This document shows, piece by piece, positions 1,299 to 6,152 of a stretch of DNA of 64,000 nucleotides. The position numbers and the translations under genes are program-made. The DNA is taken from the IMG/VR virus record IMGVR_UViG_2939786809_000002, positions 3,141 through 67,140 of that record. One strand, 5' to 3'. Under the pieces are notes generated by a model, which worked only from the letters and a program-made list of their open reading frames with translations, ran no database searches and was not told where the DNA came from. Every line of letters begins with the position of its first letter. Within the stretch, counting starts at the first letter, position 1. Origin of the DNA: a virus.

Positions 1299-2186
1299 AT
1301 GAACACCAAGTCGACACCGACCCAGCGGGCCGCTCACCTTCGAGCCCAGCGTGAGGCGAACGGCGAGAACGTCAGCCACCTGTCCGACCTCGACCTCCTC
1401 AACGACCACATCGAGCAGCGCGCCGCCGAACAGACCGACACCCGGGACCGGTACATGGGGCTGCTGCGGGACCAGCGGCTGAATGAAGACCGGGTGCGCG
1501 CCTCGGCGAACCAGACGTTCAAGGAGCGCATCCAGGTCATCGCGGCCGGCGCGGTGGAGCGGCAGCTGCGGGAGATGGGGCGTCTGGTCTCCGCGGTGGA
1601 GGCGCTGCCGGCCCAGCCGAAGCCCGAACGTATCGACGGGGTCCGCGAGGTCGCGTCCAGCGTCAAGCACATGCTGCGACTCCTGGGTGAGGACAGCGCG
1701 GAGTGGAAGCTCGACAACAACTACGACCTCGTCAACGGCGCCAGGCACGTCCTCGGCGTCCTCAAGGCCCGCGACGGCATCCCTGCCGACGAGGTGATCC
1801 GCCTGGTCGGCGAGGCGCTCACCCCGAACGGCAACCTGCGCGACCTGTTCACCGTCGCCGACACCGGCGTTCTGAAGCCCGAGTTCGCACGTCAGCAGCC
1901 GTCGTTCCTCGGCCCCGACTGGGTGGACCGCAACGGGCACTACGCCTACGAGCCGGACGGCGCCGGTGCCCGGGTCGTCGCCTTCAACCTCGGGAACGCC
2001 TGGTACCTCGACCTGTACTCGCCGACCGGCGCCCTTCTGGCCTACGGCCAGACCGCTGAGCAGCAGGTCGCTGACATCGCAGCGGTCCTGGTGGCCGCGG
2101 CCCCGGACATGGTCGGCGACGGTGCGCACGCCTGGATGCGTTTCGAGCGCACCGTCACCCGCCTGATGCAGGCGACCGCCGCGTAA
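1299..2186 (+). CDS. hypothetical phage protein
   Basis: RBS (agaaggac) upstream, 295 aa, high GC3. Confidence 0.75.
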   Translation: MNTKSTPTQRAAHLRAQREANGENVSHLSDLDLLNDHIEQRAAEQTDTRDRYMGLLRDQRLNEDRVRASANQTFKERIQVIAAGAVERQLREMGRLVSAVEALPAQPKPERIDGVREVASSVKHMLRLLGEDSAEWKLDNNYDLVNGARHVLGVLKARDGIPADEVIRLVGEALTPNGNLRDLFTVADTGVLKPEFARQQPSFLGPDWVDRNGHYAYEPDGAGARVVAFNLGNAWYLDLYSPTGALLAYGQTAEQQVADIAAVLVAAAPDMVGDGAHAWMRFERTVTRLMQATAA

Positions 2187-2214: not shown

Positions 2215-2388
2215 ATGTCTGACTACACCCAGCCCGCCCTGTTCGACGAGGCCGAGGTCGTCGGCACCGGTCGGCCGGTGCCGTGGCCCCACCTGGACGA
2301 GGCGACGGCGGACGTAGCCGCCCAGGCCGACAAGCCGTTCAAGATCGAGCGGCTGGACGTTCAGCTGCCCTTCGAGGACGCCGCCTGA
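2215..2388 (+). CDS. 57-aa protein with beta-clamp-binding-like motifs (QPALF, QLPF)
   Basis: RBS gaaggg; MSDYTQPALF...DVQLPFEDAA*; stop overlaps the dnaN ATG (TGATG). Confidence 0.65.
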   Translation: MSDYTQPALFDEAEVVGTGRPVPWPHLDEATADVAAQADKPFKIERLDVQLPFEDAA

Positions 2389-3494
2389 TGCGTGCCACCG
2401 CCCCCCAGCCGGAGCTGGCGGCAGCCCTGAAGGGGGTTGCCCGCCAGATCCCGGCCAAGCCCCTTCAGCCCGCCCTCCTCGGGGTGCGACTCGAAGCCAC
2501 CGACGGCCAGATCCGGGTGAGCGCCTGGGACGGCGCGACCGCGGCTCACGCCCACGTAGACGCCGATGTCGACGAGCCCGGCGTGATCATTGCGCCTGGC
2601 CAGATGCTCGCCGACGTCATCGGCAGCCTCGCCAAGGCGGACGTTGCGCTGGAGGCCCGCGAGGAGCTCCACGTCCACACCGACCGGGCGGAGTTCTTCC
2701 TCCCGACATCATCCGCCCACGACTACCCGACGCTGCCTGCCCTGCCCGACACCCAGGGCACTGTCGACGGGGCCGAGTTCGGGGCCGCATACAAGCGGAT
2801 CAAGGCCGCCATCAGTCGTGACGCGCAGGGCCCCACCGTCGGAATGCGTGGGGTTCGGATCGTCGTCGACGACGGCGAAATGCAGCTGGCGGCCACCGAT
2901 CGGTACCGCATCGCCATCGCCTACCTCCCATGGCAGGGCGACACCATCAGTCCGGCCATGGGCGTCGTCCCCGGCAAAGTGCTCGCCGACAACGCCGCAG
3001 TGTTCACCGGCAAGCTGCGCGTCGGACTCCCGGCCAACGGGTCCGGGGTCGCCGCGCTGATCGGGGACAGGCAGTTCGTGTCCACCACGCTCATGGACTG
3101 GGGGACGTTCCCGCCGGCTCTGGACTCCGTCATTCCGAACGGTGACGCGATCACCGGCACCCTCATCGTCGCCGCCGAGGATCTCAAGGCTGCCGTTGAG
3201 TCCGCCACGGCGGTCGGTGTACCCAGGCACATCTTCCTGACCATCACCGGCGACCGCATCGCAGTCCGCGGCGAGGGCGAGGGTCGCAGCCGGCTGCAGG
3301 TCGACGCCAGCTACGACGGCGACCTCGACAGCATCGAGCTGAGGGTCAACCCGCTCTACCTGCTGGATGCGATCAACCAGTTCACGGGGCCCATCCACTT
3401 CGAGCTGACGACCCCGACCAGGCCCTTCCTGCTCCACCAGCCCGACGACACCACCTACCGGCACGTCGTCATGCCGCTCCAGCCACTCAGCTGA
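2388..3494 (+). CDS. dnaN: DNA polymerase III beta sliding clamp, phage-encoded
   Basis: 368 aa with DnaN hallmarks: LLGVRLEA, DYPTLP, AATDRYRIA, VNPLYLLDA, C-terminal VVMP. Confidence 0.88.
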   Translation: MRATAPQPELAAALKGVARQIPAKPLQPALLGVRLEATDGQIRVSAWDGATAAHAHVDADVDEPGVIIAPGQMLADVIGSLAKADVALEAREELHVHTDRAEFFLPTSSAHDYPTLPALPDTQGTVDGAEFGAAYKRIKAAISRDAQGPTVGMRGVRIVVDDGEMQLAATDRYRIAIAYLPWQGDTISPAMGVVPGKVLADNAAVFTGKLRVGLPANGSGVAALIGDRQFVSTTLMDWGTFPPALDSVIPNGDAITGTLIVAAEDLKAAVESATAVGVPRHIFLTITGDRIAVRGEGEGRSRLQVDASYDGDLDSIELRVNPLYLLDAINQFTGPIHFELTTPTRPFLLHQPDDTTYRHVVMPLQPLS

Positions 3495-3568
3495 CCCGCC
3501 TCACGTGAAGCGCCCCCGCCGAGGCAAGCGGCGGGGGCACCCACCAGCAATCATCCCAGGAGAACCCC

Positions 3569-4198
3569 GTGATCACGATCGCCGACCACTCTCTCAGCCG
3601 AATCGTCGCGCAGACCAAGCCCCACATGGGGGGCCGCGACGACTCCGAAGCCGTCCAGGTCATCACCTTCGAGTTCACCGACGGCCACCTCTACACCTGG
3701 GCCACCAACCGGTACACCCTCGCGGTAGCCCGCACCCAGGCCAAGGGGGGCGACAAGCCGTGGGTGGCGGTCATGGGCCGTCAGCAGATGCCCGAGCTGG
3801 CAGCGGCAATCCGCCTCCTGGACGCCATGCCGATCAGCGTGGAACGCGAAGAGGGCCACCTGATTCTGTCCGGTGCATCTGGCAGCCGCATCGCCATCGA
3901 GCTGCAGGACAACCGGCAGTTGCTCGACTGGCGCAAGGTCGTCGCCGCCGCCGTCGAACGGCCCAGCGCCGCCAAGCCCATGGCTCTCAACCCGAAGTTC
4001 TTCGCGGCATGGAGGAACCTTCCGGGACCGGTGCAGATGTGGTCGTCCGGCGACCAGAAGGCCGGGGTCATCATCGCCGCGGACTTCATCGGCCTGCAGA
4101 TGCCGATCAACCCGAGCCCTGAGGCGGCCAACAGTCTCCAGCGCGAGCTCGACAGCTGGAAGCCGGCCGAGCCGGCCCCGCTGGCCGCAGCCGCCTGA
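3569..4198 (+). CDS. truncated beta-clamp-like protein
   Basis: WATNRYTLAVA, LLDWRKVV, LNPKFF and GLQMPI match the middle and C-terminal DnaN motifs in only 209 aa. Confidence 0.7.
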   Translation: MITIADHSLSRIVAQTKPHMGGRDDSEAVQVITFEFTDGHLYTWATNRYTLAVARTQAKGGDKPWVAVMGRQQMPELAAAIRLLDAMPISVEREEGHLILSGASGSRIAIELQDNRQLLDWRKVVAAAVERPSAAKPMALNPKFFAAWRNLPGPVQMWSSGDQKAGVIIAADFIGLQMPINPSPEAANSLQRELDSWKPAEPAPLAAAA

Positions 4199-4294
4199 CC
4201 CACCGACCGGCAGGCGTGTGAGCCCGGCTCCGTCTGCCCGCTGCGGGCCGCCCCCCCCTGGCGGCCCGCAGCAACCCCGAACCAGGAGAACCAC

Positions 4295-4399
4295 ATGATC
4301 GCCTGCGTCCGCTGCGACGACACCAACGGACCCTTCAGCCGCGAACCCGAAGGCCCCGTCTGCGAGAAGTGCCTCGACGAACAGGACGGCCAGCGATGA
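4295..4399 (+). CDS. 34-aa CxxC...CxxC zinc-finger micro-protein
   Basis: RBS aggaga; MIACVRCDDTNGPFSREPEGPVCEKCLDEQDGQR; ATGA overlap with the RecE-like gene. Confidence 0.6.
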   Translation: MIACVRCDDTNGPFSREPEGPVCEKCLDEQDGQR

Positions 4400-5271
4400 C
4401 CACCACCCTCGAACCCCCGGTCACCGAGGCCCCCGCGCTGGGCATCCACACCGACCTGTCGAACACCGACTACCACGCCGATAAGACGTCCCTCTCCTCC
4501 TCCGGCGCCCGGAAGCTCCTCGCCCCGTCCACCCCCGCCCACTTCCGGTACGAGCAGGACAACCCGCAGCCGGCGACGAAGACGTTCGACTACGGCAACG
4601 CCGCCCACAAGCTCGTCCTCGGCAACGGGCCCGAACTCGTCGTCATCGAGCACGACATGTGGAACACCAAGGCCGCCAAGGCTGAGGTCACTGAAGCCCG
4701 CAACCGCGGCGCCATCCCGCTCAAGCAGCGCGAGATGGACATGGTCACCGGGATGGCCGCCGCGATCCGCCAGCACCCCCTGGCTGCGGCGCTCCTCGAC
4801 CCCGCCTACGGGGCCCCGGAGCAGTCCGGGTTCTGGATCGACGGGCCGACCGGCATCCGCCGCCGGGTGCGCTTCGACTGGCTGCCGTCCATCCAGTCCG
4901 GTCGGCTGATCATCCCCGACTACAAGACGGCCGATGACGCCTCCGAGGAGGCCATGCAGAAGGCCATCGCCAAGTACGGCTACAACATGCAGGCCGACTG
5001 GTACGAAACGGCCGCCCGCGAGCTCGGGCTCGGTGGCCAGGACGCCGAACTCCTCCTGGTCGTACAGGAGAAGAAGGCCCCATACCTGATCAACGTCATC
5101 GGCATCGAGTTCGGGTCCCGCGTCATCGCCGGCGCCAAGAACCGGGCCGCAATTGAGAAGTTCGCCGAGTGCATGTCCACCGGCCACTGGCCCGGCTACG
5201 CCGACGACGAACCCAACTACCTCCCCCTCCCCGCCTACGCAGAGAACCGCGACAAGGAGACGTACCTGTGA
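4396..5271 (+). CDS. recE: RecE/exonuclease VIII-like PD-(D/E)xK exonuclease
   Basis: DYHA..SLSSSGARKLL, GNAAHKLVL, RVRFDWL, DYKT, YGYNMQADWY motifs. Confidence 0.85.
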   Translation: MTTTLEPPVTEAPALGIHTDLSNTDYHADKTSLSSSGARKLLAPSTPAHFRYEQDNPQPATKTFDYGNAAHKLVLGNGPELVVIEHDMWNTKAAKAEVTEARNRGAIPLKQREMDMVTGMAAAIRQHPLAAALLDPAYGAPEQSGFWIDGPTGIRRRVRFDWLPSIQSGRLIIPDYKTADDASEEAMQKAIAKYGYNMQADWYETAARELGLGGQDAELLLVVQEKKAPYLINVIGIEFGSRVIAGAKNRAAIEKFAECMSTGHWPGYADDEPNYLPLPAYAENRDKETYL

Positions 5272-6152
5272 ACTTCCCCGCCCAGATGCCCACCGCACCC
5301 GGAGCCGACCGCATCGGCCAGGGCACCGCCGTCGAGCAGTCCCGTGCCGTCGCCGAGGTCCAGGCCGCCATCTACGTGGCCCGCCAGTTCCCCCGCGAGA
5401 TCGGCCGGGCCCGCAACACCATGCAGGCTGCCTGCCAGTCCATGGCCCTCGCCGGGAAAGCGTTCTACCGGTTCCCGCGGGCTGGCGGCGCCGTCGAAGG
5501 CTCCACCATCCACCTCGCCAAGGCCCTCGCCCAGTCCTTCGGGAACCTCCAGTACGGGGTCACCGAACTCCGCCGCGACGACGACTACCGCCAGTCCGAA
5601 ATGCAGGCGTGGGCGTGGGACGTCGAGAACAACACCCGCCACGTCCTCACCTTCATCGTCCCGCACGCCCGGTTCGCGAAGGGCAAGGTCGAAGCGCTCA
5701 TCGACCTGCGGGACATCTATGAGAACAACGCCAACAACGGGGCGAGGCGTCTCCGCGAGGCGATCTTCGCGACGCTGCCGGACTGGTTCATCGAAGAGGC
5801 CGAAGGTATTTGCCGCCAGACCCTGAACAACGGCGACGGCAAGCCGCTCCCGGAGCGCATCGAAGGCGCCGTCCAGGTCTTCGCCGGCCTCGGCATCACC
5901 GCGGACCGGCTGGAGCAGAAGCTCGGCCGGAAGCGCGACCAGTGGACCGGCCCGGACATCGCCCAACTGCTGATCACCCACAAGTCGATCCAGCGCCGCG
6001 AGATCGCCGTCGAGGACGAGTTCCCCCAGGCCCGCATCACCGCCGCGGAGATCAAGGGCAAGGCCCCGACGAAGACCGGTGGCAACACCTCGCCGCCGGA
6101 CGACGACCCGTGGGCCGGACAGGAAGTCCGCAAGCCCGGCTCCGGCAACTAG
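5268..6152 (+). CDS. RecT-like ssDNA annealing protein (actinophage type)
   Basis: GQGTAVEQSRAVAEVQAA...FPR, FYRFPRAGGAVEGSTIHLA; coupled to the RecE-like gene. Confidence 0.75.
   Translation: MNFPAQMPTAPGADRIGQGTAVEQSRAVAEVQAAIYVARQFPREIGRARNTMQAACQSMALAGKAFYRFPRAGGAVEGSTIHLAKALAQSFGNLQYGVTELRRDDDYRQSEMQAWAWDVENNTRHVLTFIVPHARFAKGKVEALIDLRDIYENNANNGARRLREAIFATLPDWFIEEAEGICRQTLNNGDGKPLPERIEGAVQVFAGLGITADRLEQKLGRKRDQWTGPDIAQLLITHKSIQRREIAVEDEFPQARITAAEIKGKAPTKTGGNTSPPDDDPWAGQEVRKPGSGN

Follow-up and report, generated by a model that had tools for sequence, protein, structure and literature searches.

What use does a temperate phage make of a sliding clamp when neither a polymerase nor a clamp loader accompanies it, and why should the clamp gene stand between a very small open reading frame (ORF) and a second gene for a shortened clamp-like protein? 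These questions are raised by a locus in IMG/VR virus record IMGVR_UViG_2939786809_000002, a provirus record of 77.9 kb, of which we analysed bases 3141-67140 (64,000 nucleotides (nt), G+C about 69%, referred to here as the window; positions are those of the window and features lie on its + strand unless noted). As the initial annotation had described, three consecutive ORFs of 57, 368 and 209 amino acids (aa) occupy positions 2215..2388, 2388..3494 and 3569..4198; they specify an acidic micro-protein, a full-length phage DnaN (beta sliding clamp) and a reduced clamp relative that we call the mini-clamp. The explanation we favour, with a confidence slightly better than even, is that the locus forms a clamp module of two units in a prophage reliant on the replisome of its host, in which the micro-protein would be a ligand of the clamp's partner cleft and the mini-clamp a cleft-only receptor or decoy. 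The binding events that this reading calls for, and the direction of their effect, are ones that we infer from gene structure, fold, conservation, coupling and co-occurrence.

Every named close homologue comes from Streptomyces, and an ORF of 1954 aa, the size expected of a tape-measure protein, indicates a tailed phage. The clamp genes sit within a run of early genes on the + strand which, in relatives, opens with small helix-turn-helix proteins and goes on to an exonuclease and a RecT-type gene. The best explanation of this setting is that the element is a temperate Streptomyces prophage and that the locus is the clamp part of an early replication and recombination operon. The product of 2388-3494 is the sole DnaN in the record. 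Of Pol III alpha, Pol A, clamp-loader delta' and DnaB, family searches of all 77.9 kb recovered none. For these four families the earlier remark that polymerase and clamp loader are missing from the window extends to the whole record, and their absence suggests that the phage borrows the replisome of its host. A DNA-similarity search against phage records returned no match, and a scan for promoter and terminator consensus sequences gave nothing informative on the + strand.

The first of the three ORFs (2215..2388) lies behind a ribosome site of its own, AAGGGA, and encodes a 57-aa protein with a net charge of about -8 that reads MSDYTQPALFDE...DVQLPFEDAA. The two short motifs that had first drawn attention to it are indeed present, the pentapeptide QPALF at residues 6-10 (2230..2244) and a second, weaker motif, QLPF, at residues 50-53 (2362..2373) close to the C-terminus. 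QPALF conforms to the Q-x-x-[LM]-F pattern of clamp-binding-motif ligands, and the Q-x-x-L-F that is kept across the family fits the bacterial clamp-binding consensus QL[SD]LF (PMC12867686). Homologues carry QLSLF (locus L017) or QLALF (L003, L011 and L021) at this place, and AcQLALF is the ligand that was crystallised in the cleft of E. coli beta (entry 4k3p).

Across an alignment of 18 homologues the only invariant residues are Q6, L9 and F10, G19 being nearly so. A profile search enlarged the family to 190 clusters of 37-71 aa, all of them unnamed and all from Streptomyces. Among the best 120 members, LF is found in every one and Q..LF in 109, with the motif placed at residues 3-10 and mostly starting at residue 3-5; the mean length of these proteins is 43 aa and their mean net charge -9. 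The two x positions accept a wide range of amino acids. The codons of the three anchors vary too (CAG or CAA for Q, CTG, CTC or TTG for L, and TTC or TTT for F), and this synonymous change indicates that selection has acted on the peptide and not on the RNA. Only one other Q..LF occurs among the gene-like ORFs of the window, inside the tape-measure protein, where we take it to be a chance occurrence. The assignment of a QxxLF-type motif, proposed originally from the single sequence, therefore goes beyond what chance would give, and these observations support the view that the small ORF is genuine and encodes a conserved micro-protein built around a conserved pentapeptide that is predicted to bind the clamp.

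The remainder of the micro-protein is far more variable. The segment that follows the motif is of two kinds, GTGRPxPWP in the window and GYAQPEP in most members, and leads in both cases into a variable acidic tail. A C-terminal motif resembling that of the window, QL[AP]F or LAF, is found in a subset of homologues (L025, L021, L003, L011 and L007) and is absent from the commoner GYAQPEP class. Most family members possess a single motif. When the loci were compared without a tree, the class of peptide bore no consistent relation to the clade of DnaN or to the presence of the mini-clamp. The peptide is of low complexity, with its motif close to the N-terminus, and from its composition we would expect it to be disordered.

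The stop codon of the peptide ORF and the start codon of dnaN overlap in the sequence TGATG (2386..2390), with GAGGA about 10 nt upstream. By gathering loci through three routes (the mini-clamp, the peptide and DnaN) we assembled 37 distinct loci with a phage DnaN of the window's clade, and in all 37 an ORF of 38-58 aa, preceded by a good ribosome site, runs up to the DnaN start. In 12 loci the junction was inspected base by base, and each showed an ATGA, GTGA or TGATG overlap; in the remaining 25 the peptide ORF again terminates at the DnaN start. As far as the sequences can tell us, peptide and DnaN are an obligate unit that is expected to be translationally coupled. Mycobacteriophage DS6A, which has a related DnaN, carries no motif-bearing small ORF upstream of it, and the peptide accordingly appears to be specific to the DnaN clade of Streptomyces prophages. 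Taken together, strict co-occurrence, coupling, and conservation reduced to three anchor residues argue that the micro-protein is functionally tied to the phage clamp.

That clamp is, as first annotated, a complete DnaN of 368 aa. It matches the three Pfam DnaN domains (PF00712 at 1.6e-16, PF02767 at 7.4e-11 and PF02768 at 2.6e-12, with scores of 61, 42.8 and 47 bits that are all above the cut-offs) as well as phrog_947 (3.9e-51). The DnaN proteins of related loci are variable, being 31-49% identical to that of the window. The cleft, which in the window reads T D R Y R I ... P ... V V M P, was compared at the positions of E. coli T172, D173, R176, P242, V360, M362 and P363. At these positions the window DnaN agrees with the chromosomally encoded clamps of three Streptomyces genomes ([ST]DRYR[IF], P242 and MPVRL), and [ST]DRYR together with MP is common to 36 phage DnaNs and the 3 host Streptomyces DnaNs. 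The positions compared give no sign that the phage cleft has been altered or protected, and a host-like cleft implies that the phage clamp should accept both host partners and the peptide. Separately, we observed that one Streptomyces host encodes a second chromosomal DnaN (L087, G003:C1:498578-501925) in which the C-terminal part of the cleft reads LLMSVKQ in place of LIMPVRL, an alteration that sets it apart from the prophage DnaNs.

The third gene (3569..4198) begins with a GTG codon behind AGGAGAA, and its 209-aa product contains the ATNRY, LNPKFF and LQMPI motifs pointed out in the initial annotation, where it was taken for an internally deleted copy of the neighbouring DnaN. The motifs stand, and the derivation does not. 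BLASTP of the mini-clamp against the neighbouring DnaN returns a lone 17-residue patch around ATNRY with an E value of 0.019, on which ground we reject recent paralogy of the two; domain I is missing as well, and the protein belongs to a separate phage family. Its match to phrog_12598 (5.5e-13) extends over residues 2-204, its match to PF02767 is below threshold (16.9 bits against a cut-off of 27), and its 82 close homologues are of similar size, about 207-216 aa. A search of the PDB with the single sequence gave no match; it was the family profile alone that reached DnaN, and the solved beta clamps were matched from exactly the first residue of domain II.

An AlphaFold model of the mini-clamp (predicted local distance difference test score (pLDDT) 79.8) comprises one full domain of two beta-alpha-beta3 repeats (residues 1-111), a linker helix (121-129), a half domain (138-177) and an extra helix (184-197). 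Foldseek searches with this model retrieved beta clamps only, and VIA-align superimposed it on them with Z of 17-18.6 and a root-mean-square deviation of 2.3 A over 174 aligned residues, so that the clamp fold is present in the predicted structure. Residues 1-182 of the model correspond to residues 127-366 of E. coli beta, a stretch from which about 60 residues have no equivalent. In profile-profile alignment the gap falls at about E. coli 264-304, in the first half of domain III. As modelled, therefore, the mini-clamp amounts to one and a half clamp domains, DnaN domain II and the latter half of domain III, which between them keep the cleft.

The elements that make up the partner cleft of the clamp are kept in this third protein, as the alignments show one by one. 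The complete domain-II-like domain (residues 1-111, 3569..3901, equivalent to E. coli 127-~240) provides the cleft strand A45-T-N-R-Y-T-L51, which in the profile-profile alignment falls on E. coli A171-T-D-G-H-R-L177. The linker helix (residues 121-129, 3929..3955) with W121-R122-K-V-V is the counterpart of the cleft wall formed by E. coli P242-V247, W121-R-K-V aligning on the 242-247 linker. The half domain III (residues 138-182, 3980..4114) aligns with E. coli ~317-366 and ends in F173-x-G175-x-Q-M178-P179, which falls on the C-terminal V-M-P strand. The family-specific C-terminal helix (184-197) and its Ala-Ala-Ala tail (4118..4195) complete the protein, with low pLDDT and with E193 and W197 invariant.

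The ring of a beta clamp is closed by an interface between domain I and a segment of domain III around I272/L273 and 298-305, and the entry with the R103C/I305C cross-link, 3pwe, is among the beta-clamp structures matched by the mini-clamp. The 209-aa protein has no domain I, and hence falls short of the three domains of DnaN; it also has no counterpart of ~264-304. Without these parts the mini-clamp cannot form the canonical ring. An early proposal that it might act as a dominant-negative subunit is unlikely for the same reason, since neither half of the canonical interface is retained.

Conservation over the wider family leads to the same part of the molecule. A whole-library profile search identified 244 representative clusters, all matched from the N-terminus, and we measured distant conservation over 144 representatives no more than 50% identical to each other. 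The best conserved positions in this set are L41, A45, T46, D/N47, R48, T50, R55, W121, R122, F173, G175, M178 and P179, and at the positions of the motifs A-T-[DN]-R-x-T, W-R and F-x-G-x-x-M-P conservation within it is 77-92%. T46, N47, R48 and T50 are invariant in the alignment of close mini-clamps and conserved across the distant representatives; W121 and R122, also invariant in the close alignment, are kept in 79-81% of the distant set, and F173, G175, M178 and P179 in 82-92%. As the elements of the cleft are the best conserved positions, the cleft is likely to be the functional core of the mini-clamp family. In RefSeq and PHROGs the family, to which gp57 of Gordonia phage Horus belongs, goes under the name 'RusA-like Holliday junction resolvase', while the GenBank entry for that same gene has it as a sliding clamp; we find the resolvase label to be unsupported, since the evidence from fold and profiles supports a relationship to clamps only.

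The three genes had been regarded as a single cassette, and in this the genomic evidence is divided. Peptide and DnaN do travel together, at all 37 loci, whereas the linkage of the mini-clamp to them is loose, as it is present in only 5 of 21 loci found through DnaN and also occurs alone. Within the close subfamily it follows DnaN and the peptide in 19 of 23 loci, and in L015, L019, L026 and L027 it is found without either. Conversely, L059 encodes a peptide 82% identical to that of the window and has an unrelated 134-aa gene in the place of the mini-clamp. Gordonia phage Horus (NC_048039.1) carries a lone mini-clamp, gp57, adjoining cro. At the same loci mini-clamps are 51-89% identical to that of the window and the adjacent DnaN proteins 31-48%, and the disparity at L007, 89% for the mini-clamp against 35% for DnaN, points to mosaic exchange.

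Further afield, about 30 distant IMG/VR relatives (L029-L057) have mini-clamps of 22-31% identity that are fused to a conserved all-helical domain of 150-200 aa (for example L029:4001-5026 and L035:3995-5182), with no DnaN within 4 kb. This C-terminal domain, modelled with a pLDDT of 81.5, is marked by motifs such as LLRQTLRST and ESGEIGEWAWD...AGHNPQ.WHDDYEAH; it gave no Foldseek match in the PDB at E <= 0.001, belongs to no Pfam or PHROG family and has no homologue in the window. Whether it stands by itself or carries the helical domain at its C-terminus, the family always begins at the start of domain II. To judge by these comparisons, the mini-clamp is an older phage family that is optional with respect to the peptide-DnaN unit and moves independently of it. 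One further feature of L007 (Streptomyces sp. OR43) is a partial mini-clamp in inverted orientation after the intact gene (L007:5642-5749, - strand), which covers residues 136-171 at 89% identity and could be an assembly artefact or a rearrangement.

How might these proteins work? According to the explanation we favour, the acidic micro-protein would be translated just ahead of the phage DnaN, and coupled to it, and its N-terminal Q-x-x-L-F would most likely dock in the hydrophobic cleft where partners of a beta clamp bind. The foremost candidate for such docking is the phage clamp made from the same mRNA, and the host clamp would probably be bound too, because the phage cleft is host-like. 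The peptide would thereby be a competitive occupant of the cleft that controls which partners use the clamp, and in the copy found in the window the second motif, QLPF, could allow it to engage both clefts of a clamp dimer. The mini-clamp would bind motif-bearing proteins away from the canonical ring, as a decoy or an adaptor; its candidate ligands are clamp clients of the host, from the polymerase or from repair, and perhaps also the peptide encoded next to it. As to the direction of its effect, the peptide could be a poison of the host clamp, a gatekeeper of the phage clamp or a tether.

Several points weigh against this interpretation. On the phage's own clamp, with its host-like cleft, the peptide would compete with the host polymerase, which is awkward for a protein supposed to help. 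The half domain of the mini-clamp is modelled with moderate confidence (pLDDT 52-80) and may need a partner. R11, R71 and R82, at helix positions of the mini-clamp, are conserved and align opposite E. coli R137, R197 and R205, residues that we take to line the clamp channel; they would fit continued contact with DNA in some oligomer better than they fit a soluble decoy. We also considered the terminal Ala-Ala of the peptide as a degradation signal and rejected it, since the terminal E-x-A-A overlaps the embedded ribosome site and start of dnaN and is explained by that overlap.

Two alternatives survive these comparisons best, although we consider each of them unlikely. The first, close to the replisome hijack proposed at the outset, is that the peptide plugs the clefts of the host clamp and so brings replication and repair in the host to a stop, that the co-translated phage DnaN replaces the host clamp, and that the mini-clamp soaks up displaced host partners or surplus peptide. 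The peptide is never found without phage DnaN (37 of 37 loci), as would be expected if that clamp were an antidote or a bypass, and the two motifs of the window's peptide could make it bivalent. Small proteins that poison DnaN are also known, among them Twort Gp168 (PMC8565349), RipA (PMC12795458) and MuC, whose overexpression is lethal through its clamp-binding motifs (PMC12867686). What speaks against the scheme is that phage DnaN is host-like at every cleft position compared, so that we see no basis for its escape from the peptide and nothing to suggest the immunity that a bypass would need, and that most family members carry a single motif.

The second alternative, to which we attach a similarly low probability, is that the mini-clamp is itself a true DNA clamp. 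Two copies, by pairing their half domains into a full one, would make an open three-domain arc with two clefts, and four could close a six-domain ring. Clamp domains are internal duplications, and we can imagine that identical halves complete a domain between them; it is the half domain that is the less confident part of the monomer model, and the conservation of the three arginines, if their E. coli counterparts do line the channel, would suit a protein that encircles DNA. The exposed face could, however, be covered by the family-specific C-terminal helix, in which E193 and W197 are invariant, and many relatives have a large helical domain at just that position.

Rather less probable still is a complete three-way circuit, in which the micro-protein, as a natural and ribosomally made inhibitor or gatekeeper of the actinobacterial clamp cleft, would occupy host clamps so that replication and repair in the host stall, the coupled phage DnaN would furnish clamps for phage DNA, the mini-clamp would buffer the peptide or capture displaced host polymerase, and Clp-dependent turnover of the components that end in Ala-Ala would set the timing. 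C-terminal Ala-Ala is a ClpXP degron in Streptomyces, as for sigma-AntA (PMC7142297), and the Ala-Ala tail of the mini-clamp is at least 90% conserved in 27 mini-clamps and is present in gp57 of Horus. Yet 13 of the 72 gene-like ORFs of the window end in this way, including the peptide, the mini-clamp and the 295-aa protein encoded 5' of the peptide ORF (1299..2186). Chance alone would give about 2% at an assumed alanine content of about 13%, and start/stop overlaps in high-GC DNA may explain part of the excess. A specific Clp degron reading of these tails is weakened both by the number of ORFs that share the ending and by the overlap that accounts for it in the peptide. If true, the circuit would be a new class of phage replisome takeover and would provide a natural peptide lead against the site targeted by griselimycin.

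A still smaller probability falls to the idea that the peptide is a detachable clamp-docking tail that recruits some other phage protein through its middle segment or by fusion. The 295-aa protein, which is of an unfamiliar family (it has no match in Pfam, PHROG or NCBIfam and no usable Atlas match), is relevant here, because in five clusters from other Streptomyces (P0355, P0356 and P0358-P0360) its homologue is fused in frame to the peptide, so that the motif comes to lie close to the C-terminal end of a larger protein, where ordinary clamp clients have it. The second semi-conserved segment after the motif, GTGRPxPWP or GYAQPEP, could likewise be a binding site. Against this, the 295-aa gene lies upstream of the peptide in a minority of loci only, all five fusions keep the peptide's internal ribosome site and ATG, so that a separate peptide may still be made, and the middle segment is of two unrelated classes that are independent of the DnaN clade. 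Finally, that the small ORF is a mere leader, delivering ribosomes to the dnaN start and making a product without function, is very improbable despite the stop/start overlap and embedded ribosome site of all inspected loci and the poor conservation outside the motif, because Q, L and F are invariant through synonymous codons while their neighbours vary, and the motif fits a known functional consensus that a leader would not need.

The surroundings of the module add some detail. A GC-rich hairpin in the gap between dnaN and the mini-clamp gene (3512..3538) has a 10-base-pair stem, a z of -1.8 and no T tract, and is not conserved, the gaps of related loci being 13-16 nt. After the mini-clamp stop, folding predicts two strong GC-rich hairpins (4209..4272) with a minimum free energy of -51.5 kcal/mol and a z of -5.2, and none of 200 shuffles was as stable; these too are without a T tract, and may serve as a terminator of the Streptomyces type or stabilise the mRNA. 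Beyond them, 4295..6152 encodes a 34-aa CxxC...CxxC protein, a DUF3799/ExoVIII-type exonuclease and, at the position of RecT in relatives, a phrog_3657 protein. The small CxxC...GPF...CxxC protein, which looks like a zinc ribbon from its motifs, has 34-40 aa and lies between the mini-clamp and the exonuclease in the window (4295-4399), in L015 (5737-5850) and in L027 (5007-5129); in L026 the same motif ends a 115-aa protein. The two genes that follow (4369-6152) specify the exonuclease, of the PD-(D/E)XK type, and the phrog_3657 protein. In relatives this place is taken by YqaJ and RecT (L003 and L004) or by a Gp3-like protein, so that single-strand annealing may be the as yet unrecognised role of the phrog_3657 protein.

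In bacteria, polymerases, repair enzymes and regulators all gain access to DNA by way of the cleft of the beta clamp, which is also a validated antibiotic target, that of griselimycin. A widespread phage family of micro-proteins that consist of scarcely more than a cleft-docking motif, and whose translation is in every case coupled to that of a phage clamp, would be a compact natural means of controlling clamp traffic, and could show how temperate phages that lack a polymerase commandeer the replisome of their host. A cleft-only mini-clamp, represented by about 244 clusters, would in turn be a naturally minimised docking site, useful for finding the host partners that phages target.

We found no paper on a motif-only micro-protein coupled to a phage dnaN; the recurrent peptide-DnaN pair is undescribed, and the mini-clamp family has been known since 2011. 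The established clients that carry a clamp-binding motif (Pol II, III, IV and V, Hda, MutS/L and delta) present Q-x-x-L-F in an unstructured terminal segment, as the peptide is predicted to do. They differ from it in that the motif is nearly the whole conserved content of the 38-58 aa of the peptide, which has no enzymatic or DNA-binding domain, and in that the peptide gene is always joined to a phage dnaN by a stop/start overlap. MuC of phage Mu, a member of the Mor/C family, has a clamp-binding motif at residues 2-6, at its N-terminus, and a second one near its C-terminus; its binding to the clamp has been shown, and its overexpression is toxic through the clamp (PMC12867686). MuC is a folded transcription activator of about 140 aa that acts on the host clamp, whereas the peptide is highly acidic, has no folded domain and comes with a phage clamp of its own, and we detected no homology between the two. 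By analogy, MuC would nonetheless be the nearest functional precedent for the peptide.

Some small proteins of phages and mobile elements are directed at DnaN. SocB is a DnaN-directed toxin. Gp168 of phage Twort is a helical dimer that fills the DNA channel of the clamp and not its cleft (PMC8565349), and RipA is a DnaN-targeting toxin through which depletion of ClpX is reported to act in pneumococcus (PMC12795458). All three resemble the peptide in size and origin, and in the target that is proposed for it. For the mini-clamp, a comparison is offered by E. coli beta*, an internally initiated, ultraviolet-induced form of DnaN that consists of domains II and III, two full domains proposed to trimerise into a ring. 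Both proteins start near the beginning of domain II; the mini-clamp is shorter by another half domain and represents a gene family of its own. Kazlauskas and Venclovas (2011) noted five short phage homologues of polIII-beta, which were set aside, unanalysed, as likely to be dispensable (PMC3201878). The 209-aa mini-clamp is the same kind of protein, which can now be described more precisely as a predicted combination of domain II with half of domain III. GriR, lastly, is an extra dnaN copy of the griselimycin cluster that confers self-resistance on the producer. The locus described here resembles that system in having an additional DnaN in Streptomyces next to a peptide that would be directed at the cleft; it differs in that this peptide is ribosomal and linear, and in that the cleft of the phage DnaN has not diverged from that of the host at the positions compared.

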